DNA of 51,742 nt from Armatimonadota bacterium (GTDB lineage Bacteria; Armatimonadota; SYMT01): positions 1 through 51,742 of the forward strand of contig JBKBRF010000047.1 of NCBI GenBank assembly GCA_046292385.1, read 5' to 3'. The position numbers and the translations under genes were made by a program. Below are positions 8,801 to 51,445 of the stretch, piece after piece. Below the pieces are notes generated by a model. That model was not told where the DNA came from. It ran no database searches and saw only the letters and a list, made by a program, of their open reading frames with translations. How positions within the stretch are numbered: the stretch's first letter is position 1; the number at the start of each line of letters is the position of its first letter.

Positions 8801-9187
8801 CCGAGCCGCGAGTTCTGCGTGGTGAAGCGCGAGCGGACCAACACCCCGCTCCAGGCGCTGGTGACGCTGAACGACGTCCAGTATGTCGAAGCGGCCCGCC
8901 ACCTGGCGCAGCAGGCGCTGAAGGAAGGGGGCCCGTCCGCGGACAGCCGGATCCAGCACGTCGCCCGCCGCCTCCTCGCCCGCTCCTTCCGGCCGGAAGA
9001 GATGCAGGTAGTCCGGCAGAGCCTGGCGGAGCTGGAAGGCTTCTATCGCGGCCACGGCAAGGAAGCGCGCGAGCTGATCGCCGTCGGCGAGTCGAAGGCG
9101 GATCCCACCGTCCAGCCGGAGCGGCTGGCGGCGTGGACGATGCTCGTCAATCAGTTGATGAACCTCGATGAGGTACTGAACAAGTAG
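5897..9187 (+). CDS. PSD1/planctomycete cytochrome c protein (DUF1549+DUF1553) with LamG-like insert
   Basis: Signal-like N-terminus; [30 protein letters not shown]; LamG-like GRWHHVALVY..IYVDG; PSHPELLDWLA; TPLQAL. Confidence 0.92.
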   Translation: MSTLRNQSRSRQAAGIVSALLLPLAVALWSEAAPAAKASAAKKPATSTRKPAANAKAAPKAAAAALPAEVRYNRDVRPILADNCFACHGPDSAARKANLRLDTFADATQARNGRAAVVPKNPAKSELVKRILGDGPLMPPASSHKKLTKAQIEILKRWVAQGAEYEKHWSYIPPRRSALPKVKNAAWVRNPIDRFVLARLEAAGLSPAPEADRPALIRRLSLDLTGLPPKPEEVEAFVKDRSPDAYEKLVDRLLASPHWGEHRGRYWLDGARYADTHGIHFDNFREVWSYRDWVIQAFNQNLPFDQFTIEQLAGDLLPKPSLDQLVATGFNRCNITTNEGGVIPEEYAVLYTRDRTETVAQVWMGQTAGCAVCHDHKFDPLSQREFYELAAFFNNSTQNPMDGNIKDTPPIVNVPLREDRSRFEALQGELETGRKQAEARKQAARADFDAWLARGASDEVKKTVPGEKLAFHAPLSQAQGDGLAATANGQPVTLKAAAAPAWTAGHVSEKAFQRPAGGAIEAPEAGDFEKDRPFTAAAWVKIVNGQGGSILARMDDQNDFRGWDLWLEGGRIGTHLVNKWPEDALKVVAREPLQAGRWHHVALVYNGTPNPGGIRIYVDGVAKEHDTQANALKSTIRTTVPLKIGQRHTTAGVDGAGIEDVRLYDAALDADAIQRLAKGTRAAYLASRGVDKLQPAEKDELFGWWLPGVDEQFRTLAVRLASLESEERAIRFRGTIAHVMQERSEPAKAFILFRGDYDKRRDEVKPGTPAVLPPMPADFPRNRLGFAKWLLLPEHPLTTRVTVNRFWQELFGTGLVSTPGDFGITGQLPSHPELLDWLAVDFREGGWDMKRLFKLIVTSATYRQSSIISPEKAKKDPENRLLSRGPRYRLDAEVIRDYALAASGLLVPKLGGPSVKPYQPDGVWEAVAMIGSNTRDYRRDSGESLYRRSMYTFWKRSAPPASMDVLNAPSREFCVVKRERTNTPLQALVTLNDVQYVEAARHLAQQALKEGGPSADSRIQHVARRLLARSFRPEEMQVVRQSLAELEGFYRGHGKEARELIAVGESKADPTVQPERLAAWTMLVNQLMNLDEVLNK

Positions 9188-23354: not shown

Positions 23355-23415
23355 GGGACGAGAGCCGGGGGCGCGGCCTCCCGGGTTGGGATGGCCGGAG
23401 GTCTACCTCCGGCCA

Positions 23416-24168: not shown

Positions 24169-24234
24169 GCCGTACCCTTCGAGCCGAACACACGCTGCCA
24201 GACGCTGGGCCGCGGCGTGTCTCCTCTTCAGCGG

Positions 24235-27195: not shown

Positions 27196-27259
27196 AGGAT
27201 TCGTTGGTTTTCGAGGCCGTCCCACCGGCGCGGCCCCGGGTACGGAGGGGGCGGGCGAC

Positions 27260-36665: not shown

Positions 36666-36801
36666 CGGAGCAGCCGCGAGCGCCGGCGCTCGTCGCGGAC
36701 TCTCAACGTCGCGCGCCGCCACCCGCGCTGAAACGAGCGGCCCCCGCGGGTGTCTGAAAGCGGCGGCGGGCTTTCCACCGCCGTCGGCTGTGGCACTGGC
36801 T

Positions 36802-39570
36802 ATGCGTTTTCGATCCGGACTGATCGTCGTCTCTCTCTGTGGGATCTTCGGCCTCGGCGCCGCGCACGCGCTCCCGATGCCCAAGCGATCGGGCTCGAAG
36901 CGGCCCGTCGCCCGGGCGAAGCCGGTCGCGAAGGCGGCCGCCGCCAAACCGGCGCCGCCGGCGCTCAGTTTCGAGCGCGACGTCCGCCCGGTCCTGAAGG
37001 CCTACTGCATCGACTGCCACGGCGGTGAGACGACCGAGGCGAAGCTCGACCTCCGGCTGAAGCGCTTCCTCGCGAAGGGCGGCCACAGCGGACCGGTGAT
37101 CGTGGCGCGAAAGCCGTCGGAGAGCCTGCTGATCAAGCGGATGAAGAGCGGGACGATGCCCCCGGTCGGCAAGAAGGTGCCGCCGGAGCAGATCGCCATC
37201 GTGGAGCGCTGGATCGCCGCCGGGGCGCCGACCGCGCGCACCGAGCCGCTCCAGCTTCCGCCCGGGATCGACATCACCCCGGAAGACCGCGCCTACTGGT
37301 TCTTCCAGCCGGTCCGCCGCCCCACCCCACCCGCGTTCAAGCCGGCCGACCGGGTCCGCACGCCGATCGACGCCTTCGTCCTGCAGCGGCTGCGCGCGAA
37401 AGGGCTCAGCTTCGCGCCGGACGCCGACCGGCGCACGCTGATCCGCCGCGCCACGCTCGACCTGACCGGTCTCGCGCCCACCCCGGCGGAAGTCGACGCA
37501 TTCGTCGGCGATGCCCGCCCGGACGCCTACGAGCGGTTGATCGACCGGCTTCTCGCCTCCCCGCAGTACGGCGAGCGCTGGGGCCGGCACTGGCTCGACG
37601 TGGCGGGCTACGCCGACTCGGAAGGCGACGGCAGCGCCGATTCCCCGCGCCCGTATGCCTACAAGTACCGCGACTACGTGATCCGCTCCCTCAACGCGGA
37701 CAAGCCGTTCGACCAGTTCCTCACCGAGCAGTTGGCGGGTGACGAGCTGGTTCCCCGCCCCTGGACCAACCTGAAGCCGGACCAGATCGAGAAGCTCACC
37801 GCCACCGGCTTCCTCCGCACCGCCGCGCACGTGGGGGGAGACCCCGCTTCCGCCAACCAGGTAGTCGGCGACACGCTCAAGATCGTCAGCTCCAGCCTGC
37901 TCGGGCTCAGCGTCGGCTGCGCGCAGTGTCACGACCACCGCTACGATCCGATCCCGCAGGTCGACTACTTCCGCCTCCGCGCGCTCTTCGAGCCGGCGCT
38001 CAACCCGGCGGCGTGGCGCGGCCCGGCACAGCGGCGCCTCTCCCTCTACACCGATGAAGAGCGCGCCCGCGCCGCCGCGGTGGAGGCCGAAGTGCAGAAG
38101 CTCCAGCAGGCCTACAACGAAAAGCAGGCGCGCCTGGTCGAAACGGCGTTCGAAGCGGAGCTCCAGAAGTTTCCGGCGGAGCAGCGGGAGGCGCTCCGGG
38201 CCGCGGTCAAGACCCCGGACGACCAGCGCACCGCGGAGCAGAAACAGCTCGTCGCAACCAATCCGAAGCTCCTGATCAGCCCCGGCGTGCTCTACCAGTA
38301 CAACCAGGCCGCGGCGGACGAGCTGACCCGGGCCATGGAGGCGATCAACAAGAAGCGCGGTGAGCGTCCGCCGGAAGAATTCGTCAGCGTGCTGGACGAG
38401 GTTCCGGGGCAGGTCCCGACGACCCACCTCTTCCACCGCGGCGACTACCGCGCGCCGAAGGAAGCGGTCACTCCCGGTGACCTGACCATCGCCGCGCCGG
38501 ATGGCGAGCGCCTGGAGATCCCCGCCGACGACGCGAGCCTGCCGACCACCGGCCGCCGTCTCGCCTGGGCGAAGCACCTGACCAGCGGGAAGCACCCACT
38601 TGTCGGCCGCGTCCTGGTCAACCGCGTCTGGCTCCACCACTTCGGGCGCGGCATCGTCGACACCCCCGGCGAGTTCGGTAAGCTCGGCGCGCTGCCCACG
38701 CACCCCGAGCTACTCGATTACCTGGCCTCTCTCTTCACGGAGCGAGCTGCTTCTCACGGAATTGACAGAGAGACAGAGCGACAGAGTGAGGGGGAGAAGT
38801 CTTCAGCGGCAGCGGAGGCTGCCTCCCGGTCGGAGCTCTCGCCGACTCTCCGTCCCTCTGTCTCTCCGTCGAAGCTCGAAGGGCTGGGCTGGAGCTTGAA
38901 GGCGCTGCACAAGACGATCATGCTTTCCACCGTCTACCGCCAGTCTTCGGTCGCGAGTGCGGCGGCGCGGAAGATCGATACGGACGGGTCGCTCTACAGC
39001 CGCTTCTCGGTCCGCCGCCTCGACGCCGAGTCGCTGCGGGACCGGATGCTGCAGGCGGCGGGCCGGCTCGACCCGGCGCAGTTCGGACCGCCGGTGCCGG
39101 TGGTGGAGGATGCGGTCGGCCAGGTCGCCGCGAAGGACGACACGCCGCGGCGGAGCGTCTACCTCCAGGTGCGGCGCTCGCAGCCGATCTCGTTCCTGGT
39201 GGCGTTCGACGCGCCGGTGATGGCGCTGAACTGCGAGCGCCGGCAGACGACCAACTCCGCTCCGCAGGCGCTGATGCTGATGAACAGCGACTTCACCCTG
39301 GCGCAGGCAAAGCACTTCGCGCAGCGGCTCCGGAAAGAGGCGCCGGAAGGCCCGGAGCGGCAGGTCGCGCTGGCCTGGAGCCTCGCCTTCTGCCGGCCGG
39401 TCACGGCGGAGGAGACGGCAGCCTCGGTCGCCTATCTCCAGCGGCAGCAAGAGCTTCACAAAGCCGCGCCTGGGGGCGAGAAGCTGATGCCGGAGCAGAT
39501 TCAGCTCTCCGCACTCACCAACTTCTGTCAGCAGTTGCTCAGCTCCAACGAGTTCCTCTATGTCGACTGA
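36802..39570 (+). CDS. PSD1/planctomycete cytochrome c protein with in-frame hairpin insertion
   Basis: CIDCH; GERWGRHWLDVAGYADS; CAQCHDHRYDP; PTHPELLDYLA, then a ~47-aa insert, then GWSLK; ends NEFLYVD. Confidence 0.9.
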   Translation: MRFRSGLIVVSLCGIFGLGAAHALPMPKRSGSKRPVARAKPVAKAAAAKPAPPALSFERDVRPVLKAYCIDCHGGETTEAKLDLRLKRFLAKGGHSGPVIVARKPSESLLIKRMKSGTMPPVGKKVPPEQIAIVERWIAAGAPTARTEPLQLPPGIDITPEDRAYWFFQPVRRPTPPAFKPADRVRTPIDAFVLQRLRAKGLSFAPDADRRTLIRRATLDLTGLAPTPAEVDAFVGDARPDAYERLIDRLLASPQYGERWGRHWLDVAGYADSEGDGSADSPRPYAYKYRDYVIRSLNADKPFDQFLTEQLAGDELVPRPWTNLKPDQIEKLTATGFLRTAAHVGGDPASANQVVGDTLKIVSSSLLGLSVGCAQCHDHRYDPIPQVDYFRLRALFEPALNPAAWRGPAQRRLSLYTDEERARAAAVEAEVQKLQQAYNEKQARLVETAFEAELQKFPAEQREALRAAVKTPDDQRTAEQKQLVATNPKLLISPGVLYQYNQAAADELTRAMEAINKKRGERPPEEFVSVLDEVPGQVPTTHLFHRGDYRAPKEAVTPGDLTIAAPDGERLEIPADDASLPTTGRRLAWAKHLTSGKHPLVGRVLVNRVWLHHFGRGIVDTPGEFGKLGALPTHPELLDYLASLFTERAASHGIDRETERQSEGEKSSAAAEAASRSELSPTLRPSVSPSKLEGLGWSLKALHKTIMLSTVYRQSSVASAAARKIDTDGSLYSRFSVRRLDAESLRDRMLQAAGRLDPAQFGPPVPVVEDAVGQVAAKDDTPRRSVYLQVRRSQPISFLVAFDAPVMALNCERRQTTNSAPQALMLMNSDFTLAQAKHFAQRLRKEAPEGPERQVALAWSLAFCRPVTAEETAASVAYLQRQQELHKAAPGGEKLMPEQIQLSALTNFCQQLLSSNEFLYVD
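38762..38872. repeat. Intragenic in-frame octamer-repeat hairpin
   Basis: Left arm TTGACAGAGAGACAGAGCGACAGAGTG; right arm CTCTCCGTCCCTCTGTCTCTCCGTCGA (38846-38872). Confidence 0.85.
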
Positions 39571-41011
39571 CCCCCGCTACTACTCCCGGCGCCGGCTGCT
39601 GTCGCAGTCCGCGTTCGGCATCGGCTCGTTCGCGCTCGCGCACCTGCTGCAGCAGGACGGCCTGCTCGCCGCCCCGCCCAAGCCGGCGGAGAACCTGCCG
39701 CTGAACCTGAAGGCGCGGCCGCCGATGTTCGCGCCGCAGGCGAAGGCGATGATCTCGCTCTTCATGCACGGGGGACCCTCGCACGTCGACCTCCTCGACC
39801 CGAAGCCGGATCTCACGAAGCACCACGGGCAGGACTACGGCGGGGACGTCCACTTCAGCTTCGTCAACCGGGCCAGCAAGAAGCTGTTCGGCACGCCGTT
39901 CAAGTTCCAGAAGCACGGGCAGTGCGGCACGGAGGTCTCCGAGCTGCTGCCCCACACCGCCGGTATCGTGGACGATCTTTGCGTCATCCGCTCGATGCAC
40001 ACCGGCCACAACGGTCACGAGGTCTCGATCCGCTACTTCCACGGCGGCATCGCGGGCGTGACCGGCCGCCCGACGCTGGGGAGCTGGCTCGTCTACGGCC
40101 TCGGAAGCCCCTCGCAGAACCTGCCGGCCTACATGGTGCTCTCGGACCCGGGCGGCCACCCGGTCGACGGCACGATCAACTGGTCCAGCGGCTTCATGCC
40201 GCCGCTCTACCAGGGCACGGTGCTGCGCCCGCAGGAGCCGCGCATCCTGAACCTCGATCCGCCGGCGCACCTCCGCGGCGGGATCCAGGAGGACAACCTG
40301 AAGTTCCTGGAAGCCCTGAACCGCCGGCACCTGGCGCGGCATCCGGGAGAGGACGACCTGGAGACGCGCATCTCCGGCTACGAGATGGCCGCGCGGATGC
40401 AGGTGGCCGCCAAGGAAGCGCTCGACGTCTCCGGCGAGCCGGAATACGTCAAGAAGCTCTACGGCCTGGACCAGGAGCACACCCGGGAGTACGGAACGCG
40501 CTGTCTCATTGCGCGGCGGCTGGTGGAGCGCGGCGTCCGGTTCGTGCAGCTCTTCCTCGGCGGCCAGCCGTGGGACAACCACAACAACATCCGGGCGGAG
40601 CTCCCCAACATCTGCCGCCGCACCGACCAGCCCGCCGCGGCGCTGGTGCAGGACCTGAAGCAGCGCGGGCTGCTCGACACCACGCTGGTCCACTGGGGCG
40701 GCGAGATCGGCCGGCTCCCGGTCTGCGAGGGAGACCTGAACGACGTCTCCGGCCGCGACCACAACGGCCAGGGCTTCTCCATCTGGCTCGCCGGCGGCGG
40801 GATCAAGCCCGGCATGACCTTTGGCGCCACGGACGAGGTGGGCCACAAGGCAGTCGAGAACGTCGTCACCCCCAACGACTACCAGGCGACGGTCCTCCAC
40901 CTCTTCGGACTGGACCACGAGCGCCTGGCCTACCACATCAACGGCCGCGACCAGAAGCTCACCGACGGCCGCCCCGCCCGCGTGGTGAAGGAGATCCTGA
41001 AGAGCGCGTAG
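39560..41011 (+). CDS. DUF1501 family protein
   Basis: SRRRLL; HGGPSHVDLLDPKP; WDNH; GRDHN. Confidence 0.92.
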   Translation: MSTDPRYYSRRRLLSQSAFGIGSFALAHLLQQDGLLAAPPKPAENLPLNLKARPPMFAPQAKAMISLFMHGGPSHVDLLDPKPDLTKHHGQDYGGDVHFSFVNRASKKLFGTPFKFQKHGQCGTEVSELLPHTAGIVDDLCVIRSMHTGHNGHEVSIRYFHGGIAGVTGRPTLGSWLVYGLGSPSQNLPAYMVLSDPGGHPVDGTINWSSGFMPPLYQGTVLRPQEPRILNLDPPAHLRGGIQEDNLKFLEALNRRHLARHPGEDDLETRISGYEMAARMQVAAKEALDVSGEPEYVKKLYGLDQEHTREYGTRCLIARRLVERGVRFVQLFLGGQPWDNHNNIRAELPNICRRTDQPAAALVQDLKQRGLLDTTLVHWGGEIGRLPVCEGDLNDVSGRDHNGQGFSIWLAGGGIKPGMTFGATDEVGHKAVENVVTPNDYQATVLHLFGLDHERLAYHINGRDQKLTDGRPARVVKEILKSA

Positions 41012-41040
41012 CGCGGGGGTCTGCGGGGAAGGGCTCGGGC

Positions 41041-41233
41041 CGCCTGCGACTGAAGTCGAGGCTACAGAAAGCGAAGCCCGCCTGCGCGGGCTAAGACTTC
41101 CATCAGCCATCAGCTCCGATCGATGCGGTCACCAGGACGCTGTCGAGGGCTTCAGAAGGCTGGAGGCCGTTTCGACGCTCAGCCCGCGCAGGCGGGCTTC
41201 GCCCTGAGTAGCGTGCGACTTCCAGTCGCACGC
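41041..41233. repeat. Inverted REP doublet (REPIN/BIME-like) between convergent genes
   Basis: Minus-strand copy at 41041-41092 and plus-strand copy at 41178-41233 of AGCCCGCGCAGGCGGGCTTCGC..GTAG..CGACT..AGTCG. Confidence 0.85.
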
Positions 41234-41274
41234 GGCCGGCCGGACGTACGCCCGCCCGCGGCCGGACGCAGCCC

Positions 41275-41715
41275 CTACTCTTCCGGAGACTGGTGCAGCA
41301 CCTGCATCAAGGCGTCGTGAGCCGACGCCAGCTCCGCCACGGCCGTTTCGACGTGCGCCATCTCGTCGGGCGGGAGAAGTCGGCGCATCGGCTCGCAGAT
41401 GAAGGCGGTGCAGCCGAAGGGGCGGAGGTCGCGCGGAAAGCGGCAGCCGGTCGCGCCGAGGTAGTCGCACGGCTCCGCGGCCTCCTCGAGGCCGGCGCGG
41501 GCGGTGGAAAGGATCTCTCCCGCCAGCTCCGGCGCGGCCGAGACGGGAGCGACCTTGAAGCCCAGCTCCTCGACCAGGATCAGGTCTACGGGGCGGATGC
41601 GCGCCGGCTTCCGGCAGCACGGCGTGGCGCAGGCGGCGCAGTGCCGGGCGGTAAACGGGTCAAACAGCGCCCGCAGCCGAAGCTGCGCCCGCCGGTAGCG
41701 CTCCAGAGGGTTCAT
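41275..41715 (-). CDS. Cys-cluster protein (CxxCxxxCC...C...C...C; possible Zn/Fe-S binding, YkgJ-like)
   Basis: HCAACATPCC, PCDYLGATGC, RPFGCTAFIC. Confidence 0.72.
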   Translation of the reverse strand: MNPLERYRRAQLRLRALFDPFTARHCAACATPCCRKPARIRPVDLILVEELGFKVAPVSAAPELAGEILSTARAGLEEAAEPCDYLGATGCRFPRDLRPFGCTAFICEPMRRLLPPDEMAHVETAVAELASAHDALMQVLHQSPEE

Positions 41716-41720
41716 TCTTT

Positions 41721-41898
41721 GGGGCTAGGGGCTAGGGTATAGGGTTTAGGGTGTAAAGGTCCGGTCGGCGCAGTTCATCCAAACCGGTACCGATCGCCGC
41801 AGGGGATCGGTACCGAGCAGAGGGAAGTGCAGGCGTGGCCGTCCACGGATGGCGCACCCCTGCACCCAAAGACCTAGACCCTAGACCCTAGACCCTAG
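41721..41898. repeat. Heptamer-armed hairpin (TAGGGNN / GACCCTA) with internal palindrome
   Basis: GGGGCTAGGGGCTAGGGTATAGGGTTTAGGG (41721-41751) versus tandem GACCCTA units ending at about 41897; internal GGTACCGATC...GATCGGTACC. Confidence 0.82.
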
Positions 41899-42419
41899 AA
41901 TTGAGACGCGGTGCTCCGCAGCCAGGTGTTGATCTGGCGGCAGAGGTCGTCGCCTTCTTTGCCCAGGATGCGGCGCAACTCGCGCTGGTCGACCTTGAGC
42001 AGCGAGTTCCGGGTCTTCTTCACCTCGTGGCGTCCGCGTGCCAGGCGCGCCTCGCGAATCAGTTTCTGGGTGTTGGCCTGCAAGCGCTCCCGCTCTTCCC
42101 GCTTCCGCTCTCGCCGCGGGTGGTAGGTCCGCGGACCGGTGTCCTGCACGGCGTTCTCTTCGATGAAACGCTTCACGTGCTCCCGCGCGAAGATGTTGTC
42201 CGGACGGCTCTCCTCCTCGTTCAGGTCCCGCAGCACTTCCGCGCTGGACCGGAGGCTGGCGCCGATGAAGGCGGCCGGCATGCCGCGCTCCACCAGGTTT
42301 GCGGCCATGTCCCGCAGGCGAGACTGGTCTTCCGCCGCCATCCGCCCCCAGGCGGGGACGTAGCTCTCGATCATCCGGTCCAGATCCTCAGGTACCCGTC
42401 CGCAGTCTTCGTTTCGCAT
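41895..42419 (-). CDS. Hypothetical protein
   Basis: RBS GGAAGGGAG; charged helical sequence; no recognised family. Confidence 0.62.
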   Translation of the reverse strand: MRNEDCGRVPEDLDRMIESYVPAWGRMAAEDQSRLRDMAANLVERGMPAAFIGASLRSSAEVLRDLNEEESRPDNIFAREHVKRFIEENAVQDTGPRTYHPRRERKREERERLQANTQKLIREARLARGRHEVKKTRNSLLKVDQRELRRILGKEGDDLCRQINTWLRSTASQF

Positions 42420-42502
42420 CCAGATCTCCCTTCCGAATACCACTGAGCCGACACTGCATCAATCGAGCGGACACTGTTCGGTAGCTACGCTCTGGGCGTT
42501 TC

Positions 42503-42531
42503 TTGCAGGACTCACCTCCCCTTGCTATAAT
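42503..42531 (+). promoter_or_regulatory. Sigma70-type promoter upstream of the ECF sigma gene
   Basis: TTGCAG-N17-TATAAT with TG extension. Confidence 0.68.
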
Positions 42532-42822
42532 CGATCCACGCTTCCCCGCAGCCGGTTCCCACCTTGGGCGCTTTCGCCCGGCGAATCACCGGCCTGGGGA
42601 GGGGATAGTCCGACCAGTCCTGAAGACTCTTAACGTCTCCGATGGCTGATGCCGCACCGCAAGCCGAATTCCATGGTGGAGCCAAATCTGCTCCTTCCGG
42701 TGGCCGCTGCGGGCGACCTTGTCACCATTATTGTCGGCTGATTGCCCGGACGGCAAACCCACGCGGTTGCCGCAGCCGGAACCGGGTCGTCGTGCCGCGC
42801 GTAAAAACATTTAGAGGTCAGC

Positions 42823-43398
42823 GTGATTACTCCTGAAACCCAGGCCCTCACCCCCTCGGTCTCGATTCCGCAGGACCGCACTCTCAGCGCGGCCGACCGG
42901 AAGCTCTTCGAAGAGCTCTCCGCCCGGCATTATAAGCAGGCGTACCATATCGCGTACCGAATGACCGGCACCCACGCCGGCGCAGAGGATCTCACCCAGG
43001 AAGCAATGGTGCGGGCGTTCCAGTCGTTCCACCGCTACCGCCGGGAGCTCCCCTTCGCCAACTGGCTCTACCGGATCATCGTGAACCTGCATATCGACGA
43101 GCTGCGACGACGGCCTAAAGCGTGGATCGACTCCGTGGACGAGATGCCGGGGCTGATGGAGATCCCGGATGGCAACAGCGATCCCTCGGATCTGGTGCTC
43201 TCCCAGGAAATCGACACGCGCCTCCAACAGGCGTTGAACGCTCTGCCAAAGGACTTCCGCACCGCCGTAGTGCTGTGCGATATCGAAGGCCTTTCTTACG
43301 AAGAGATCGCGGAAGTGATGCGGTGCTCCATCGGCACCGTGCGCTCGCGGATTCACCGGGGCCGCAACCAGCTCCGGAGGTTCCTGGGCGTGTGCTGA
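42823..43398 (+). CDS. ECF RNA polymerase sigma factor (RpoE/SigE-like)
   Basis: AEDLTQE, FANWLYRI, LSYEEIAEVMRCSIGTVRSRIHRGR. Confidence 0.93.
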   Translation: MITPETQALTPSVSIPQDRTLSAADRKLFEELSARHYKQAYHIAYRMTGTHAGAEDLTQEAMVRAFQSFHRYRRELPFANWLYRIIVNLHIDELRRRPKAWIDSVDEMPGLMEIPDGNSDPSDLVLSQEIDTRLQQALNALPKDFRTAVVLCDIEGLSYEEIAEVMRCSIGTVRSRIHRGRNQLRRFLGVC

Positions 43399-43514
43399 TC
43401 CCGACCTTCTAAAGAGAGGTGGTTTCAGCCACCCGGCCAGAGCGTACAACAGGATTACGTTCCTCTTAGGGCGCCCCTTCGCCCGCACACCGAGGTGATC
43501 CAGGAGTCCTTCGG

Positions 43515-44168
43515 ATGCTCTGCAACCGGGTTCAGAACCTCCTCTCTGCCTATATCGACTCCGAGCTCACGGGCCAGGAGATGCTCTCCATCCGCGGCCA
43601 CGTGGAGCGCTGTCCAGACTGCCGTCAGGAGTTGGAGAGCCTGCGCGGCGTGAAGCGGCTCTTTGCTTCGCTCGACACGCCCGCGGCCGTCCCCGCCTTC
43701 TCCATGGAGGCGGTGGAAGAGCGCCTGCGAGAACGCAGCGCCTCGGCGACGGTAGCGCGCGGCTTCGCCCGGCTGGTCCGGCCGCTGAAGACGCTCGCCG
43801 CCTCCGCGCGGCGCGCCGCTTCGTATCGCCTCGCCGGCAGCATGCTCGCGCGGGAAGCGCCGGTACCCCTCATGATGGGTGGAGCCGCCATGCTCGCCGC
43901 GCTCGCCATCGGGGTGATCCAGCAGCCGCAGGCGCCGGACGCCGTGAGCGCGCGGGTGCCGGCCCTGATCGCGGCCGAGCCGGATCCGCACGTGCACTGG
44001 CAGCTCCAGCCGCTGCTGCCGGCGATCGACCCGCACGCGCAGCCGGTCTACTACGACGCGGGACGCCTCCCGCGGCGCCTCCCGCTCGGCTTCACGCCGG
44101 CTCCCGGCGCTCACGCGCTCCGCACCGTCTCCTTCGAACGGTACCCGTCCCACCGTGCACTCCGTTGA
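43515..44168 (+). CDS. Zinc-finger anti-sigma factor (zf-HC2/ZAS)
   Basis: C..VQNLLSAYIDSEL...HVERCPDC; one TM segment. Confidence 0.88.
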   Translation: MLCNRVQNLLSAYIDSELTGQEMLSIRGHVERCPDCRQELESLRGVKRLFASLDTPAAVPAFSMEAVEERLRERSASATVARGFARLVRPLKTLAASARRAASYRLAGSMLAREAPVPLMMGGAAMLAALAIGVIQQPQAPDAVSARVPALIAAEPDPHVHWQLQPLLPAIDPHAQPVYYDAGRLPRRLPLGFTPAPGAHALRTVSFERYPSHRALR

Positions 44169-44182
44169 GAATGTACGGCGGC

Positions 44183-44209
44183 GGAACTCCACGCACGCGG
44201 CTCCGTCTA
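44183..44209 (+). promoter_or_regulatory. ECF sigma promoter upstream of htrA
   Basis: GGAACT-N15-CGTCTA matches the canonical ECF GGAAC-N16-CGTC pattern. Confidence 0.65.
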
Positions 44210-44323
44210 TAAGATCATGTGCGACACGCCTGTGGGCGAGCACGGCGAGCACCCCAGTGAGCTGCTCGACCCGCCCGCAGACCCTGACCTGGCCGTCCTC
44301 TACGGATGAAGAGGTTCGCTTCC

Positions 44324-45898
44324 ATGAGAACAGTGAGAGAGCTCTTGAAGGCTAAGACGAATAACTGGGCAGTCTGCCTGCTGAGCGCCTCGGTGCTCGC
44401 GCTCGCCGTGAGCAACTGGGGGCGCCCGTCCCCGGTCGTGGCGCAGGCCCCGGCAAACGGACCCGTCAAGATGTCCGGCGAGTCCCGCGCGGTGCTGAAC
44501 GCGCTGGAAGACGCCTTTGTCAATATCGCGGACAGCGTGGAGCCGGCGGTGGTGACCATCGAGGCGCGCGCTGAGCCCCCGGCTGCGGGCCGGGAGCGGC
44601 CCGCGCCGGACGGCGGCATGATCCAGGACGACGACGTGCCGGCGCCGTTCCGGGACTTCCTCCGCCGCCTGCCGCAGGGCGGCCCGGACGCACCGCGACC
44701 GCGCGGCGCCTCCACCGGCTCCGGCGTCATCATCCGGCAGAACGGCCGCACCGCCTACGTGCTCACCAACAACCACGTGGTGGACAACCGGGACAAGTTC
44801 CGGGTGACCCTGAGCGACAAGCGGGAGTACCTCGGCACGCTCGTCGGCCGCGATGAGCGGACTGACCTGGCGGTCCTGAAGTTCGAGGCCCGCGAGAACC
44901 TGCCGGCCGGCTCCGTGGCCCGCCTCGGCAACAGCGACGACGTGAAGGTAGGCCAGTGGGCGATCGCCATCGGCAGCCCGCTCGGCTACAAGTCCACCCT
45001 CACCGTCGGCGTCATCAGCGCCCTCGGCCGCGAGCTGAACGGCCTCGGGCCCGGCACCACGAACTACGCCGACCTGATCCAGACCGATGCCTCCATCAAC
45101 CCCGGCAACTCCGGCGGCGCGCTGGTGAACATCGAAGGCCAGGTGGTCGGTATCAACGTGGCGATCGCCTCCAACGGCATGTCGCAGGGCAACATCGGCA
45201 TCGGCTTCGCCATCCCGGTGAATACCGCGCGGATGGTGGCCGACCAGCTCATCACCACCGGAAAGGTGACCCGCGGCTACCTCGGCATCGGCTGCAGCTC
45301 GGATAACCGCGAGCTGGCACATGAGCTGAAGGAGCACCTGAAGGTGCCGAACGGCGGCGCCCTGGCGGAGACCGTCCACCCGAACACGCCGGCCGCGCGC
45401 GCCGGGCTGCAGGACGGCGACGTCATCGTGAAGCTCGGCACCAAGCAGGTCCGCAACTTCACCGACCTGGAGAACGTCGTGGCGTCCACTGCCCCCGGCA
45501 GCACCCTCCCGGCGGAAGTGGTGCGGAACGGCGAGCTGAAGCGGATGAGCATCACGATCGCCCAGCGGCCGTCCGAGAAGGAGCTGCTGCAGGGGCTCAC
45601 TCCCGGCGAGCAGGCGAAGCCGCGCACCGCCGCGCAGGACGTAGTGGAGAGCAAGTTCGGCCTCGGGATCCGCCCCGCGGAGGACGGCAAGGGCGTCGAG
45701 GTGGCGAACGTAGCCCCCGGCAGCTCCGCCTTCGAAGCGGGACTGCGCCCCGGCGACGTGGTGCTGCAGGTCGGCAACACCCCCACCCCTACCCCGCAGG
45801 CCTTCCAGAAGGCGATGGACGGAGTGACAGGTGACCGGGGCGTGGTGATGCGCGTCCGCACTGCGGTGGGCCTGCGGTTCGTCGTAGTGAAGCCGTAA
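44324..45898 (+). CDS. htrA: DegP/HtrA serine protease with two PDZ domains
   Basis: GSGVII, LTNNHVV, TDLAVL, IQTDASINPGNSGGAL; two PDZ domains; alternative start at 44306. Confidence 0.93.
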   Translation: MRTVRELLKAKTNNWAVCLLSASVLALAVSNWGRPSPVVAQAPANGPVKMSGESRAVLNALEDAFVNIADSVEPAVVTIEARAEPPAAGRERPAPDGGMIQDDDVPAPFRDFLRRLPQGGPDAPRPRGASTGSGVIIRQNGRTAYVLTNNHVVDNRDKFRVTLSDKREYLGTLVGRDERTDLAVLKFEARENLPAGSVARLGNSDDVKVGQWAIAIGSPLGYKSTLTVGVISALGRELNGLGPGTTNYADLIQTDASINPGNSGGALVNIEGQVVGINVAIASNGMSQGNIGIGFAIPVNTARMVADQLITTGKVTRGYLGIGCSSDNRELAHELKEHLKVPNGGALAETVHPNTPAARAGLQDGDVIVKLGTKQVRNFTDLENVVASTAPGSTLPAEVVRNGELKRMSITIAQRPSEKELLQGLTPGEQAKPRTAAQDVVESKFGLGIRPAEDGKGVEVANVAPGSSAFEAGLRPGDVVLQVGNTPTPTPQAFQKAMDGVTGDRGVVMRVRTAVGLRFVVVKP

Positions 45899-45919
45899 CC
45901 TGATACGGCAGCACAGCTC

Positions 45920-45953
45920 AACCCCCGGGGGCAGATGCTTCCCGGGGGTTTTT
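45920..45953 (+). terminator. Intrinsic terminator
   Basis: AACCCCCGGG...CCCGGGGGTT followed by TTT. Confidence 0.8.
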
Positions 45954-46017
45954 GATTCGCGGTAGACCTGCGCCGCACTCGTGGAAGCGCAGGACTCGCT
46001 CGCCAGGATGAACGCGG

Positions 46018-46728
46018 ATGCGACGTGAGGCCCGACGACGGCGCTGTGCTATCTGCGGACGCGAGCTGCCCCTCTCCGAGCTGATACCGGGCGACAGCGT
46101 TCGGGAGCCGATCGCCTCCGAGATCCGCGAGCAGTACCCGGAGTGGAGCGCTGCCGGACTGATCTGCGCGCGGGACCTCAATCACTTCCGCACGCAGCAC
46201 GTCCAGCGGGCGCTCGAGGCGGAGCGGGGTGAGTTGACCGCCCTGGAGGCGCAGGTGCTCTCCAGCCTACGGGAAGACGAGACGCTGGCCCGCGACATCA
46301 ACCGGGAGTTCGATCGCGATCTGACCGTCGGCGAGCGGATTGCCGATCGGGTCGCCGAATTCGGCGGCAGCTGGCGGTTCATTCTCAGCTTCGGCGCGTT
46401 CCTGGCGGTGTGGATCCTGGTGAACTCCACCCTGCTCGTGGTCCGCCCGTGGGACCCCTACCCGTTCATCCTGCTCAACCTGCTGCTCTCGTGTCTCGCC
46501 GCCCTCCAGGCCCCGATCATCATGATGAGCCAGAACCGGCTGGAGGCAAAGGACCGGCTGCGGGCGGAAAATGACTACCGGGTGAACCTGAAGGCGGAGC
46601 TGGAGATCCGCAGTCTCCACGCCAAGCTCGACCTCCTTCTGTCTCACCAGTGGCAGCGTCTGCTGGAGATTCAGGAGATCCAGACGGAGATGATGGAAGA
46701 GCTGGTCGCAAAGCAAAGTAACCGTTAG
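46018..46728 (+). CDS. DUF1003 membrane protein
   Basis: [44 protein letters not shown]. Confidence 0.9.
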
Positions 46729-46757
46729 GCCGCGAACTGCAGAGGAGCTCCGCTCGA

Positions 46758-47246
46758 ATGCCCCTGTCCCCCCACATCCAACATCTCCGCGCCGCGGTCG
46801 GAACGCACCTGCTTCTCCTGCCCGGGGTTGCCGCCGTCGTCCGGAGCTCCCACGGCGAGATCCTGCTGCACCGGCGCGCGGATGATGGGAAGTGGAGCCT
46901 CCCCGCCGGCGCCATCGAACCGGGGGAGTCGCCGGCAGAGGCAGTAGTTCGGGAAGTTCGGGAAGAGACGGGGCTAACCGTAGCTCCGGAGCTGATCCTC
47001 GGGGTCTTCGGAGGGCGGGAGCTCCGGCACACCTACCCGAATGGAGACGAGGTGGAGTACACCGTCATCGTCTTCGGCTGCCGGGTGGTCGGCGGAGAGC
47101 TCCACGCCGGCGACGGAGAGGCTCTCGAGTTCGGCCACTTCGCTCCGGAGGCATTGCCGCCGCTCGGGTTACCGTACCCGCCGGAGCTGTTCCGCGGAGG
47201 TGCGTCGGGTCCCGCGCTCTTCCAGGGAGTCGGTCAGTCCACCTGA
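46758..47246 (+). CDS. NUDIX hydrolase
   Basis: Nudix box [27 protein letters not shown]. Confidence 0.92.
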
Positions 47247-47264
47247 CGGCGAGGACCGCTCCCC

Positions 47265-48713
47265 TCAGGCGAGGACCTCTTTGACCACGCTGCCGCCGAA
47301 ATCGGTGAGGCGCTCGTGGCGGCCGTTGTGGAGCACGGTGAGCCGCATGTGGTCGAGCCCCAGCAGGTGCAGGATCGTCGCGTGGAAGTCGCGGGGGTGG
47401 ATCGGGTTCTCGATCGCGCGGTAGCCGATCTCGTCGGTTGCGCCGACCACCGTCCCGCCCTTCACGCCGCCGCCGGCCATCCACATGGTAAAGCCGTACG
47501 GGTTGTGGTCTCGCCCCTTCCCGTTCTGGGTCACCGGCGTGCGGCCGAACTCCCCGCCCCAGATCACCAGCGTCTCGTCCAGGAGCCCGCGGCGCTTCAG
47601 GTCCTTCAGCAGCGCCGCGACGGGTCGGTCGGTCATGCCGCACATCTTGTTGTGGTTCTCGACCATGTTGTCGTGCGCGTCCCACTGCACGCTCACCGGC
47701 CCGCCGCCGGAGTAAAGCTGGACGAAGCGGACGCCCCGCTCCACCAGCCGCCGGGCGAGCAGGCAGCGCGTGCCGAACTCGGTGGTCCGCGGGTCGTCCA
47801 GCCCGTAGAGCGCGCGGGTCTCCGCCGTCTCCCGGCTCAGGTCGACCGCCTCCGACGCGTGCTGCTGCATCCGGAACGCCAGCTCGTAGGAGGCGATTCG
47901 CGCGGAGAGGTCCTGGCCGTCCTCCGTCAGCGTCGCCTCGTTCACTTCGCGCAGGTAATCGAGGATCCGCCGCTGCTGGCGCGGCGCAACTCCCGGCGGC
48001 GGCTTCAGGTGCAGGATCGGCTTCGGACCGGGGCGGAGCTGGGTCCCCTGGAACGCCGGCGGCAGATAGCCGGAGTCCCACATCGGCGCGCCGCCCTCCG
48101 GCAGGCCCTCCGGCTGCGTGAGCACGCAGAAAGCCGGCAGGTTCTGCCCCACGCTGCCGAGGCCGTAGGCGACCCAGCTCCCGAGCGAGGGATGACCGGA
48201 GATGGTGCGGCCGGACATGAACTGGTACATCGCCGGCGCGTGGACGAAGCTGTCCGAGACGCAGGAGCGTAGCACGCAGAGATCGTCCGCGCACTGCGCT
48301 ACGTTCGGGAGCAGCTCGCTCACCTCCAGCCCGGACCGGCCGTGCTTCCCGAACTTCCACTGGCTCCGCATCAGCGGGGTTCCCGCCTGGATGAACTGGC
48401 TCTTGATCTCCCCGAAGCTCGGCGGAAGCGGCTGCCCGTCCAGGCGCTCGAGCTCCGGCTTCGGGTCGAACGTCTCGAGGTGGCTCGGTCCCCCGACCAT
48501 GAAGAGAAAGATCACGCTCTTGGCGCGAGGCTGGAAATGCGGCTGCCGCGGCGCAAGCGGGTTCGCCCGGGCCGGGGCCGGCGCGGCGAGGCCGTCTTCC
48601 GCCAGCAGGGTGGAGAGCGCGAGCGCGCCCAGCCCGCCGCCCGCGCGGAAGAGCAGGTCGCGGCGAGTCATCGCCGCCGGAAGATGGGAGCTACGTCCGG
48701 GCATCGATCGCAT
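47265..48713 (-). CDS. DUF1501 family protein
   Basis: [39 protein letters not shown]; start 2 nt after the PSD1 stop. Confidence 0.92.
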
Positions 48714-48715
48714 CC

Positions 48716-51445
48716 TCACTTCAGGTAGACGAACCCGTTCAGGTTCAGCGCCGCCAGGCTGAGATCGACCCACGCCGCCGCCTCGGCCGGCTCGACGCCC
48801 GCCGGCACCGGCTCCGGCAAGCGCAGCTCGCCGCCCTCGGCCGCGCGGTCTCGGAGCAGTGCCACCTGGTCCCTCAGGAACCGTTCGGTAGCGTCCCGCT
48901 CCTGCACTGTCGGGCCGCGGCCCTGCGTCACCAGGAACAGCCGTCGGATGCGCGCGCTCACGTCTCGCTGCTGCTCCCGCAGGAGGCGCCCCGCCAGCCG
49001 GGCGCTCTGCTGGGCCATGAAGTCGCTGTTCATCAGCGTCAGCGCCTGGAGGGCGTGGACGCTCTGGTTGCGGGCGCCGCACGACGTCATCATGTCGGGC
49101 GCGTCGAAGACCACGAAAAGCGGCAGGCGGACGTTCCGCTTCCGCAGCAGGTAGAGGCTGCGGCGGTCGTGCTCCCGCGGGTCGGGCGTGACCGGCCACA
49201 GGTTGTCCGGCTCCCCCTCCGTAAAGATCGTGTCGTACACCTCCGGCTCCAGCGGCACCCGCACGGAGGGCCCGCCCGGCCGGACGTTCAAGCTGCCGGA
49301 CGCCGTCAGCACCGCGTCCCGCACCGCTTCCGCGTCGAGCCGCCGGCGGTTCTGCCGCCAGAGCAGCTCGTTCGCCGGATCGAGCTTCGCCTTCCGCGCG
49401 TCCCCATCGCTCGCCTGCCGGTAAGTGCTGCTGGTCACCACCAGCCGGACCAGCCGCTTGAGGCTCCAGCCCAATCCACTCGACGGAGAGACAGAGGGAC
49501 GGAGAGACAGAGAGATCTGTGACCGCAAGGCGGGCTTTGCTTCGCGAGAGCCGGCGGTTCGGACTCTCTCCGTCCCTCTGTCTCTCCGTCTCTCCGTCGC
49601 CTCCGCAGGAGCGGGAGCCGGTGCCGTAAACGAGGAGGCCAGGTAATCAAGAAGTTCGCGATGGGTCGGCGTCGCGCCGTTGCGGCCGAAGTCGTTGGGG
49701 GTGGCGACGATGCCGCGGCCGAAGAGCGTGTGCCAGACGCGGTTGACTAGCACGCGGCCGGTAAGCGGGTGGTCCGGCCGGGTCAGCCAGCGGGCCAGCG
49801 CCAGGCGATCGTTGCCGGGAGCCGGCTCGCCGCAGGCCGCTGCATCCGAGGCGTCCTTCACACGCAGGGCGGCGGGGAAGCCGGGCTGGACCGGGGCCCC
49901 GAGGGAGTGCGGATCGCCGCGCTCCAGCACGTGGACCGCCGGCCGGGGCTGCAGACCGTCGGTGACGCCCGGCGCGACCGGCAGCGGCTCCGGCTCCTCG
50001 AAGGCGAGGACGTGCATCCGGGCACGCAGCGCGGATCGGCGCGCGCGGTCTTCCGGCGAGAGTGCGGCCACCACCTCCGTCCACTCCAGGTTGAGCTGCA
50101 CCTGCGCCGCGGCCGCCTGCTTCCGCTCTTCCGGGGTGCGGTCCTTGGCGGGGATCTCCAGCACGCGCCGGTCTTCCGGATCGAGGCGCTCCAGCTTCTG
50201 CCGGCGCAGGTGCTCCCGGTACGGCTTCTCCAGCTCTGCGATCTCCGCGCGGATCGGCTTCAGCTTCTCCTGATGAGCGGCGGCTGCCGCCTGGTACGCC
50301 GCTTCGTCCGCCTCCGTGGCCACGGAAAGCTCGTGGTTGATCGTGGGCGCGAAGAACGCCTGGAGGCGGTAATAGTCGGCCTGGCTGACCGGGTCGTACT
50401 TGTGGTCGTGGCAGCGCGCGCAGCCGATCGTCAGCCCCATCACCGCGGAGCCGACTCCTGCCACCGCCTCGGTGAGCCACTCCTGCCGGTTGACCGCCTC
50501 GTCCTGGTTGCCGCCGACCACGTGCTGCGGACCGGCGCGCAGGAAGCCGGTCGCCACCCGCAGATCGAAGCTCTTCGGATCGAGCAGGTCCCCGGCGATC
50601 TGCTCCGTGAGGAAGCGATCGTAGGGGCGGTCCTCGTTCAGGCTGCGGACCACGTAATCCCGGTAGCGCCAGGCCTGCGGGCGGTCGCCGTCCAGCTCGA
50701 AGCCGTTCGTCTCCCCGAACCGCACCACGTCGAGCCAGTGCTGTGCCCAGCGCTCCCCGAACCGCGGCGAGGCGAGGAGCCGGTCGACGGCCCGCTCGTA
50801 GGCGTCCGGCCGGCGGTCGCCCAGAAACCCGGCGATCTCGGCCGTCGTGGGGGGCAGTCCGGTGAGGTCGAGGGTCACCCGGCGAAGCAGCGTGAGGCGA
50901 TCGGCTTCCGGGCTCGGCTTCAGCCCCCGCGCCTCCAGTCGCGCCAGCACGAAGGCGTCGACCGGATTGCGCGCCCAGCCCTGCTGCCGCGGACGAGGAA
51001 CCGCGGGGCGGACGGGAGACTGAAAGGCCCAGTGTCCCTGCGGTTCTTTCGGGGCAGCACCCGCTCCGGACGGGTACGGCGCGCCGGCGTCAATCCACCG
51101 GCGGAGTAGGGCGACTTCCGCCGCGGCGAGCGGGGCGCCCTGGGGCATCGCCGGCTCGCCGGCGCCGGAGACGAGAAGAATCAGGAGGCTGCGCTTACTG
51201 TCCCGCGCCACGAGCGCGGCGCCGCGTCCGCCGCCCAGCAGGGCGGCCTCGCGGGTGCGGAGATCGAGCCCGCCCTGCTTCTTGTCGCCGTGGCAGTTGA
51301 AGCAGCGCCGCTCCAGCACCCCGAAAGCGCCGCGTGCCAGCTCACCGGGCGCCGCCTCCGCCAGGGCCAGCCGCCCCAGCACCCCGGCGCCCGCGAGCAA
51401 CACGACCGGGAGCGCGGCCCGCCTGATCGACCCGAATACGCCCAC
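48716..51445 (-). CDS. PSD1/planctomycete cytochrome c protein with in-frame hairpin insertion
   Basis: [41 protein letters not shown], then a ~49-aa insert, then GWSLK. Confidence 0.9.
49480..49599. repeat. Intragenic in-frame octamer-repeat hairpin with a REP fragment in the loop
   Basis: 49482-49507 GACGGAGAGACAGAGGGACGGAGAGA is perfectly complementary to 49565-49590; the loop contains CCGCAAGGCGGGCTTTGCT. Confidence 0.9.

Follow-up and report, generated by a model that had tools for sequence, protein, structure and literature searches.

The window analyzed in this study is the whole 51,742-nt stretch, on the + strand, of contig JBKBRF010000047.1 from an Armatimonadota bacterium (SYMT01; GCA_046292385.1). 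It holds four PSCyt1-PSCyt2-PSD1 genes, referred to here as paralogs 1 to 4. Membership required that PF07587 score above its gathering threshold and that PF07583 and PF07635 lie upstream of it, and all four genes show this arrangement, with scores of 236-336 bits for PSD1 (cut-off 28.5), 252-290 bits for PSCyt2 and 40-61 bits for PSCyt1. DUF1501 genes are the usual partners of PSD1 (DUF1553) genes, and one directly follows each of the three paralogs whose next gene was scanned (2, 3, and 4). Another open reading frame, P0004 (23386-27387), was rejected as a paralog, being a shadow ORF that encodes arginine-rich nonsense; the real second paralog lies at 13025-15625. The host genes, their partners and the short loops are:

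5897..9187, + strand: paralog 1 (P0003), PSCyt1-PSCyt2-PSD1 with Laminin_G_3, without insert
8414-8434, + strand: canonical 7-residue loop of paralog 1, VDFREGG
13025..15625, + strand: paralog 2, PSCyt1-PSCyt2-PSD1, without insert
14900-14920, + strand: canonical loop of paralog 2, SELVRGG
15609-17045, + strand: DUF1501 partner of paralog 2 (E 7.7e-157)
36790..39570, + strand: paralog 3 (P0001, 926 aa, putative start codon), PSCyt1-PSCyt2(DUF1549)-PSD1(DUF1553)
39560..41011, + strand: DUF1501 gene directly 3' of paralog 3 (E 6.6e-138)
47265-48713, - strand: DUF1501 partner of paralog 4 (E 5.4e-157)
48716..51445, - strand: paralog 4 (P0002, 909 aa), PSCyt1-PSCyt2-PSD1

In paralogs 1 and 2, three residues separate ELL(D/E)WLAxx(F/L) from GW. 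Paralogs 3 and 4, both of which read LDYLA in this motif, carry 50 and 52 residues at the same place, and in paralog 3 the insert divides the PSD1 match into two stretches. These counts agree with a sequence-only reading of the same DNA, which had given about 50 and 52 residues and had placed the second insert at 49473-49630, vs. 49472-49627 here. The parts of the two inserts are:

38737..38886, + strand: in-frame insert of paralog 3, 150 nt or 50 codons, between ...LDYLASLF and GWSLK
38764..38787, + strand: left arm of the paralog 3 insert, three octamer units (GACAGAGA, GACAGAGC, GACAGAGT)
38788..38846, + strand: degenerate core of the paralog 3 insert, oriented to its gene as the paralog 4 core is
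38847..38870, + strand: right arm of the paralog 3 insert, three inverted units (TCTCCGTC, CCTCTGTC, TCTCCGTC), encoding ..LRPSVSPS
49472..49627, - strand: in-frame insert of paralog 4, 156 nt or 52 codons
49482..49513, + strand: GA-rich arm of the paralog 4 insert, four octamer units, the right arm in the gene sense
49514..49566, + strand: core of the paralog 4 insert, 53 nt between the marked arms, with the GGTTCGGACTC end; a full-length member of the core family
49567..49598, + strand: CT-rich arm of the paralog 4 insert, four inverted units

Both inserts are hairpins with octamer arms, as had been proposed. Ten matches to GACRGAGAGACRGAG with at most one mismatch occur in the window, vs. 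0.03 expected, and all lie within the two inserts. The sense strand folds at -63.2 kcal/mol in paralog 3 (z -3.7) and at -76.6 kcal/mol in paralog 4 (z -5.4), and none of 200 shuffles was as good in either case. As also first described, the 27 nt at 38846-38872 match the reverse complement of 49480-49506 exactly, with LRPSVSPS encoded by each copy. The claim that the loops of the two hairpins are unrelated did not survive, as both are diverged copies of a single core family of ~55 nt common to 24 copies in the genome. The whole element in paralog 4 scores 115.8 bits. Against a core-only profile from which the window copies had been left out, the paralog 4 core scores 39.7 bits and that of paralog 3 scores 9.7 bits over profile positions 1-30, the best of 500 shuffles reaching 2.9; the second half of the paralog 3 core is diverged or deleted. 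Because these cores are homologous, the suggestion of an ancestral insertion that kept its arms and had its loop replaced is superfluous for paralogs 3 and 4. Part-wise replacement was seen elsewhere, in type C inserts, whose right half differs and whose right arm is built of heptamers.

The repeat family across the genome

In the element, the 8-nt unit GACRGAGA is repeated in two inverted arrays that flank the ~55-nt core, which ends in GGTTCGGACTC. A 15-mer search gave 164 matches in the genome vs. 9 for the reversed control. By our own reading of a list of 60 nhmmer matches, 24 loci are full-length, 19 of them in DUF1553 loops and 5 free-standing. Full-length elements have z values of -3.7 to -6.1, with stems of -63 to -79 kcal/mol among the folded inserts, and the insert types termed A and B carry the core in opposite orientations relative to the gene. 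RNAalifold found no conserved RNA structure within the core (19 cores), and blastn against 40 other genomes returned, in place of the full element, arm-like matches in three of them. No DUF1553 homology was found in the flanks of the five free-standing copies, and the possibility that these are decayed DUF1553 genes was rejected, since blastx matched nothing but the element itself.

Both orientations of the octamer are present in 30 of 78 clusters. Seventeen of the 61 dense clusters lie inside ORFs that look coding, 16 of them in DUF1553 genes and one in a small ORF of doubtful standing, and 44 do not, the coding call being that of our own GC-frame heuristic, applied with no gene caller. In its behavior outside genes, the repeat resembles other simple-repeat hairpins of intergenic DNA. 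The 8-mer GGTTCGGA was rejected as a genome-wide marker; it has 574 matches and its reversed control 27, yet ~250 are expected from base composition and 124 of the 574 lie in ordinary-looking ORFs, so that its census is uninformative.

The loop of the DUF1553 paralogs

Within genes, the repeat was seen at a single site of the PSCyt1-DUF1549-DUF1553 family, a loop that lies between two helices and corresponds to PSD1 profile position 64/65. The element is in frame there in 19 of the 54 paralogs of the genome; the LA-to-GW spacing is 53-71 residues in these 19 and 6-13 in the other 35. In an AlphaFold2 model of paralog 4 (pLDDT 84.3), residues 618-642 fall below 50 and are framed by two confidently modelled helices (596-607 and 662-670), suggesting that the insert forms a disordered extra loop between helices.

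When the paralogs were aligned and the inserts mapped on their tree, insert-bearing paralogs proved polyphyletic. The tree requires at least 10 changes of insert state, at least 7 of them forced by starred branches, and the AU test rejects a single clade of insert-bearing paralogs (lnL difference 1179.6, p 5.6e-6). Insert-free nearest relatives were found in both protein halves (C2_187885 with C25_38770, and C30_83568 with C16_105690), and sister paralogs carry different insert types. Nucleotide identity rises from a host-gene background of 0.54-0.58 to peaks of 0.85-0.97 in the insert, and left flanks are 0.80-0.93 identical (60-nt windows) in two pairs from different clades. The inserts thus appear to be younger than their hosts, or homogenised relative to them, and appear not to have been inherited together with the host genes. 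At the protein level, once ~15 residues away from the site, insert-bearing paralogs resemble one another no more than they resemble insert-free ones. No long conversion tracts were seen at that level past 15 residues, so any tracts have to be short; a unit inserted independently along with short flanks of its own would give the same pattern. A role of the insert as a breakpoint for shuffling of N- and C-terminal modules was unsupported, the nearest neighbours of the two half-proteins agreeing in 13 of the 19 paralogs with an insert and in 11 of 21 without one.

Three fates of the RNA had been offered in the sequence-only reading, namely that the insert is translated through, bypassed or processed. 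The reading frame is kept in all 19 copies. A core landmark lies at 1 mod 3 in 12 of the 12 copies that have it, though the left part spans 67-103 nt. In types A and B, every genic core is 55 nt long and free of indels (10/10); their divergence by phase is 0.19/0.30/0.40, peaking at the third codon position in both orientations (permutation p 0.025, from 10 related copies and 55 columns). In contrast, four of the five free-standing cores are 54 nt and show no 3-nt period (p 0.47). Since bypass or removal would not impose a fixed core length, a 3-nt period and a fixed frame, these sequence patterns favor translation through the insert and speak against bypass; processing of the RNA at the hairpin may still occur. 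Contigs of four runs, RNA contigs included, stop at both window hairpins. One contig of the X2 run represents a hairpin-less form in which 23 letters replace 38737-38876 with the frame kept, at a depth of 4.4 and 90% likeness, and it may derive from a related organism.

Two sister genera occupy the same loop with different repeats of their own. Loops of at least 20 aa were found in 11 of 28 scored matches in genome G006, 27 of 34 in G005 and 0 of 10 in G001. These counts come from 361-nt pieces, which represent 29 of the 48 matches in G006, 41 of the 74 in G005 and 10 of the 52 in G001; six further G005 loops run off the fetched piece. The heptamer AACCRGA has 55 matches in G006 and none in G000, G005, or G001. 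Among folded inserts, 4 of 7 from G006 reach z <= -4.4, and 1 of 9 from G005 has a strong stem. A 7-residue loop is present in 59 of 62 scored diverse homologues, which is the unbiased figure; the share of long loops in a separate homologue search is biased, as its search words came partly from the insert. A hairpin-free class of extended loops, xxFxxP...GLGW, is present in G000, G001, G005, and G006, and loops of G005 share a core peptide with G000 (RTAAAS-like vs. VRTAAS).

Spread of the repeat and competing explanations

On balance, we consider it probable that the element is a translated selfish repeat similar to the Rickettsia palindromic elements (RPE), one that is restricted to a single permissive loop and moves between paralogs through recombination over short tracts. 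The loop would tolerate almost any peptide, so that an insert is retained, and gene conversion over short tracts between copies would pass the insert among paralogs and reshuffle its parts. Homology for such exchange could be provided by the conserved flanking coding blocks HPELLDxLA and GWSLKxLH and by the repeat itself, and one might speculate that hairpin-induced breaks drive the process. We infer concerted evolution between the repeat in the loop and the intergenic repeats of the same genome, which would explain the different repeats at the same codon in sister genera.

Site-specific insertion, in which an enzyme that moves hairpin repeats would recognise this DUF1553 codon and strike each paralog and genome independently, is possible but rather unlikely. 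It would account for the same codon being used in 19 polyphyletic paralogs, for the other genera with different repeats there, and for the two orientations that the core takes in its host genes (types A and B), and Y1-transposase-like genes are present in the genome (two strong PF01797 matches). However, neither octamer arrays nor the core's end motif occur within 600 nt of either strong Y1 gene; one is flanked by different palindromes, and no repeat was recognised beside the second. No target-site duplication was seen by eye at the 24 loci, no flank common to the five free-standing copies and the DUF1553 site was seen, and copying is the simpler account of the gene-side flanks SVFxxP... and ...GLGW that insert-bearing paralogs have in common. 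The sequence-only reading had spoken of a permissive surface loop repeatedly targeted by the repeat. Repeated occupation fits the 19 of 54 polyphyletic paralogs and the other repeats of sister genera; of the two senses that "targeted" may have, site-specific insertion and copying between paralogs, copying is favored. A cis-acting hairpin, under selection in mRNA or DNA because it serves as an RNase III site, adjusts expression of the family by pausing translation, or switches genes on and off through 8-nt slippage, seems improbable. The stems are indeed very stable (-63 to -79 kcal/mol) and kept in many paralogs, stems of other sequence occur in G006 (4/7) and G005 (1/9), and unit lengths of 8 and 7 nt are not divisible by 3. 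Against this, L024, L031, and most of G005 have one arm only or no strong fold, and most paralogs and homologues lack an insert altogether. With respect to switching, a phase-variable contingency locus would have a long, perfect tract in an ORF, with a unit length not divisible by 3 and length variants in the population. The units here are 8 nt, but the arms comprise only 2-4 imperfect units and would be poor slippage tracts. Every one of the 19 copies is in frame as assembled, and length variants were not seen in the contigs of four runs, which break at the hairpins and would not reveal them.

We regard as distinctly improbable an ordinary lineage-specific protein loop, derived from one old insertion by vertical descent with many losses and in-place expansion of its low-complexity sequence, its likeness to intergenic repeats being secondary. 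The hairpin-free xxFxxP...GLGW class in four genomes, the resemblance of the RTAAAS-like peptide of G005 to VRTAAS of G000, and some protein-level constraint on the core are in keeping with such a history, but the AU test rejects a single clade and the inserts are far more similar than their hosts. Insert types differ between sister paralogs and near-identical inserts sit in distant ones, and the same core and arms also stand free between genes. That the insert is untranslated, either bypassed by the ribosome or removed from RNA or protein, is scarcely credible; the sole point for it is the strong hairpin inside a coding region, and it is opposed by the intact frame of 19 of 19 copies, the fixed core frame in 12 of 12, the 3-nt periodicity, and core indels in 0 of 10 genic vs. 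4 of 5 free-standing copies. Neither a stop codon nor a take-off/landing pair was noticed in the inserts read. It is also conceivable, but doubtful, that the DUF1553 loop is a dedicated landing site, into which a novel machinery for spreading simple-repeat hairpins would purposely insert or copy them, and that the shared hairpin is an RNA or DNA handle by which dozens of DUF1553/DUF1501 pairs are co-regulated or recombined, with RNase III cleavage, pausing, and break-induced conversion as possible routes.

Relation to known repeats and meaning

Rickettsia is the main setting in which in-frame palindromic repeats have been described, and there they are spread over genes unrelated to one another; we found no printed account in the literature of in-frame hairpin repeats in the DUF1553 loop. 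As described in the excerpt of the source used here (PMC10969869), RPE are dispersed palindromes in frame in many unrelated genes. The present element resembles them, by description, as a dispersed palindromic family of ~100-150 nt with in-frame genic copies, whose putative added peptide would be tolerated by the fold (PMC10969869, in excerpt); the dispersed hairpin family is seen here in the 24 full-length loci. Unlike the RPE of that excerpt, the element is restricted to one gene family and one codon position (19/19 genic copies), its arms are tandem 8-nt simple repeats and not a unique palindrome, its copies appear to be exchanged among paralogs, and sister genera use other repeats at the site (PMC10969869).

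The GGGAATC heptamer repeats of Xanthomonas form convergent arrays able to fold into a stem-loop, with 70 and 75 cases in two strains, according to the part of that report consulted (Rehm et al., 2015; PMC4692102). They share with our arrays tandem units of 7-8 nt, convergent pairs, and a mostly non-coding location near gene ends (PMC4692102, same part), the pairing and the location outside ORFs being seen here in 30 of 78 clusters and 44 of 61 dense clusters, respectively. In contrast, the Xanthomonas repeats are rich in G-tracts and form quadruplexes, whereas GACRGAGA has no run of three G; they are also under-represented in coding regions, and that part of the report mentions neither a conserved core nor a family-wide in-frame site (PMC4692102). 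Miniature inverted-repeat elements (MITEs) that make in-frame fusions include, in the sections of the sources at hand, BOX, ERIC, QMITE1, and Anabaena MITEs (PMC10969869) and those of Coxiella (PMC5896051). As in those sections, the present repeats are small, non-autonomous and have inverted ends readable within a host ORF (PMC10969869), but no unique terminal inverted repeat, target-site duplication or (in a non-systematic search) parent insertion sequence was found, and the ends are simple-repeat arrays of variable length. REP/REPIN-RAYT systems, as far as the extracts of two papers describe them, likewise comprise intergenic hairpin-forming repeat pairs that spread in a genome, and Y1-like proteins are encoded here as well; however, one of the Y1 genes here is flanked by a different palindrome, and those extracts describe REPINs as extragenic (PMC3116915, PMC3733652). 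Borg tandem repeats, in the portion of the account available, are also fast-evolving nucleotide repeats that add disordered peptide to ORFs, but they are direct repeats arising in place in many genes, unlike the inverted arrays with a common core at one site of one family (PMC9879509).

In the genome studied here, insertion of this kind is limited to a single codon of one large family of paralogs, and the pattern recurs with different repeats in sister genera. For annotation and alignment, it serves as a warning that PSD1 matches split in two represent intact genes. The inserts mark a position that is structurally free within a widespread family of proteins of unknown function, and they offer a natural experiment in how intergenic repeats enter proteins and make disordered loops, and in how gene families swap short segments.

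Inserts in the window and across the DUF1553 family

The window (G+C 69%) carries four PSCyt1-PSCyt2(DUF1549)-PSD1(DUF1553) genes, with a DUF1501 gene next in each of the three that were checked.

Paralog 1, 5897-9187: loop of xxF/L, 3 residues and GW, no insert
Paralog 2, 13025-15625: loop of xxF/L, 3 residues and GW, no insert
Paralog 3, 36790-39570: insert at 38737-38886, 50 residues
Paralog 4, 48716-51445, minus strand: insert at 49472-49627, 52 residues

The longest plus-strand ORF of the window (23386-27387, 1333 codons) was rejected as a gene: it is a shadow frame rich in arginine. In paralogs 3 and 4, the match to the Pfam PSD1 profile is broken at position 64/65. The sequence-only reading had reported loops of 3 residues in paralogs 1 and 2 vs. 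50 and 52 in paralogs 3 and 4, a 27-nt sequence common to both inserts and a hairpin in each. All three observations were borne out, the identity being exact and both inserts folding as long hairpins: the sense strand reached -63.2 kcal/mol in paralog 3 (z -3.7) and -76.6 kcal/mol in paralog 4 (z -5.4), and 0 of 200 shuffles was as stable in either case. With at most one mismatch, GACRGAGAGACRGAG occurs 10 times in the window vs. 0.03 expected, and all 10 matches lie within the two inserts.

The DUF1553 family is very large, with 54 paralogs in the genome of the window (G000; by tblastn) and, in each of five same-family genomes, 36-74 matches to the conserved stretch that precedes the site. 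When all 54 paralogs were aligned, the LLDxLA-to-GW spacing was 53-71 residues in 19 and 6-13 in the other 35. The reported inserts are real and far more extensive than first noted (19/54 paralogs), and every one of the 19 genes is open and in frame. Three types were distinguished.

Insert types among the 19 insert-bearing paralogs
Type A, 7 genes including both window genes: ..VRTAASREA.. in the core
Type B, 5 genes: ..ESRDRxAGS.. in a flipped core
Type C, 7 genes: left arm with the initial part of the core, a different middle piece, and TCATCCY heptamers as the right arm

The heptamer TCATCCY is a second abundant repeat of G000 (84 matches vs. 0 for the control). An array of it also occurs at 22633-22658 of the window.

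A dispersed hairpin repeat and its coding hosts

The inserts belong to a hairpin repeat dispersed through G000 (7.04 Mb, 91 contigs), in which inverted arrays of the octamer GACRGAGA form arms around a core of ~55 nt common to the copies (GAGAGCYGTG...GGTTCGGACTC). A 15-mer had 164 exact matches vs. 9 for its reversed control, and in 30 of 78 clusters with at least three octamer units a GA-rich array is succeeded by an inverted version of itself. A profile of arms and core gave 60 matches, which we merged into 24 full-length loci. Near-perfect one-way octamer arrays of up to 15 units, not internal to ORFs, were also seen at C20:69661-69780, C10:105387, C85:6188 and C42:10434.

The two window loops had been described as unrelated, which proved wrong: paralog 3 carries the common core in decayed form. 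When the window's copies were kept out of a profile of the core alone, paralog 4 scored 39.7 bits and paralog 3 scored 9.7 bits (profile positions 1-30), while the best of 500 shuffles reached 2.9 bits. No conserved secondary structure was found within the core, indicating that the hairpin is due to the arms.

Coding hosts of the element are confined to one loop of one family, where it is in frame. By our own heuristic for coding assignment, 17 of 61 dense octamer clusters lie inside coding-like ORFs and 44 do not; 16 of the 17 are in DUF1553 genes and one is in a doubtful ORF of ~110 codons. Five full-length copies outside DUF1553 genes look intergenic by codon-position G+C, and their 1.5-kb flanks showed no DUF1553 similarity.

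Probable translation of the insert

Counted from the LA codon, the position of the landmark GAGTCCGAACC is 1 mod 3 in all 12 copies that have it, even though the left part of the insert varies from 67 to 103 nt. Core length is 55 nt in 10/10 genic copies of types A and B vs. 54 nt in four of the five free-standing ones. Genic cores diverge by column phase (0.19/0.30/0.40; permutation p 0.025), with the peak at third codon positions whichever way the core is read; the values for free-standing cores are 0.41/0.48/0.43 (p 0.47). In the AlphaFold2 prediction for paralog 4 (alignment of 70 rows; mean pLDDT 84.3, pTM 0.81), helices 596-607 and 662-670 flank the insert, and residues 618-642 fall below pLDDT 50. 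Judged from these sequence patterns and the model, the insert is probably translated. The results fit a translated, disordered loop, and together they argue, indirectly, against bypass or removal of the insert.

Part of the window is present in 18 sequencing-run rows, and four runs were compared with it; all four consist of contigs, which end at both hairpins. In one contig from a soil metagenome run (X2; 90% likeness, depth 4.4), positions 38736 and 38877 are connected by 23 other letters, in frame by our reading (...SLF-AAPASASG-EGLGW), giving a hairpin-less extended loop at the paralog 3 insert. This form could be allelic, or could represent the corresponding gene of a closely related organism.

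Gene tree, related genomes and origin of the inserts

Other genera fill the same site with genus-specific repeats. The full element was found in none of 40 relatives, all of other genera, and only in G000, with arm-like matches in 3 of the 40; the G000 octamer matches five times in G006, once in G004 and not at all in G005, G001 or G002. Loops were sampled from pieces of 361 nt around the site (G006, 29/48 matches; G005, 41/74; G001, 10/52).

Loop lengths in three relatives (residues)
G006: 28 scored; 10 of ≤8, 7 of 9-19, 11 of ≥20
G005: 34 scored; 6 of ≤8, 1 of 9-19, 27 of ≥20; 6 more exceed the 361-nt piece
G001: 10 scored; 7 of ≤8, 3 of 9-19, 0 of ≥20

The long loops consist of repeats other than the G000 octamer. 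Those of G006 are built from AACCRGA heptamers in inverted arrays (55 matches in G006; 0 in G000, G005 and G001), and four of seven folded inserts gave z of -4.4 to -6.9. Those of G005 mix several repeats, run to more than 110 residues and frequently contain an RTAAAS-like peptide resembling the G000 core peptide VRTAAS. Among the G005 repeats (pieces L050-L088) are GGGGCCAG-like and CGCAATAC-like units, CAATTG palindromes and TCATCCT heptamers. Hairpin-less extended loops of 13-21 residues (xxFxxP...GLGW) occur in G001, G005 and G006; the nearest G000 case, C2_256727, has 12 residues and lacks the GLGW end. As a baseline, a diverse set of 80 DUF1553 loci spanning many phyla yielded 62 scorable ones, with a 7-residue loop in 59, 13 residues in two and one mis-anchored. 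A word-based protein search, its candidates partly picked by insert-derived words, returned repeat-like loops of 30-57 residues in metagenomic homologues, some labelled Blastocatellia.

When the inserts were mapped, as had been proposed, on a tree of the 54 paralogs inferred by maximum likelihood (insert columns left out), they did not match the gene tree. The element is polyphyletic, with at least 10 gains or losses required and at least seven forced by well-supported branches; a single insert-bearing clade costs 1179.6 log-likelihood units and is rejected (AU p 5.6e-6). Insert-bearing genes are paired with insert-free sisters at ~55% identity (e.g., C2_187885 with C25_38770, C30_83568 with C16_105690), a relation that holds separately for the protein parts before and after the site, and sister paralogs frequently differ in insert type (e.g., C30_39585, type B, vs. 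C65, type C). That the insert is an ordinary loop, inherited with its gene, is therefore very improbable.

Similarity between inserts far exceeds that between the genes carrying them, and distant paralogs have nearly identical insert DNA: in 60-nt windows, identity is up to 0.85-0.97 within inserts vs. a paralog background of 0.54-0.58. In two pairs from different clades (C1/C25_17161 and C30_39585/C9_80854), the 30-50 nt from LLDxLA to the first octamer are also shared (0.80-0.93 identity). Among insert-bearing paralogs in general, no excess similarity was found beyond ~15 residues on either side of the site. Site-specific insertion of the repeat is conceivable given the single site, and we regard it as unlikely beside these shared flanks. 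A selected cis-acting hairpin or switch, to which the stable folds might point, seems more doubtful still. We favor a route in which short-tract recombination between copies would spread the insert through the paralogs and homogenize it; the conserved coding blocks flanking the site would aid such recombination, and the DUF1553 loop would tolerate the insert. G000 also has two Y1-transposase-like genes (C51:25920-26261 and C22:55627-55965; 145 and 149 codons). The first has a GCGAGGGGTT..AACCCCTCGC palindrome on both flanks and looks like a separate REP/RAYT-type system; no link between either gene and the element was found.

The nearest counterpart of the DUF1553-loop inserts is the family of Rickettsia palindromic elements, which are palindromic repeats lying in frame within numerous unrelated genes (PMC10969869), and the free-standing copies resemble the convergent heptamer-repeat pairs of Xanthomonas (PMC4692102). 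The present case stands apart on four points: the genic copies occupy a single equivalent codon across a family of paralogs, the arms consist of tandem simple repeats, copies would be exchanged among paralogs, and sister genera have other repeats in their place. In the literature searched, which lay outside subscription journals, work on in-frame palindromic repeats and intergenic simple repeats did not describe the site, and DUF1553 was mentioned in a single paper, on another subject. The element is best regarded as a selfish palindromic repeat of a known kind, putatively translated. Its distribution is unusual, being single-site, family-wide and recurrent.
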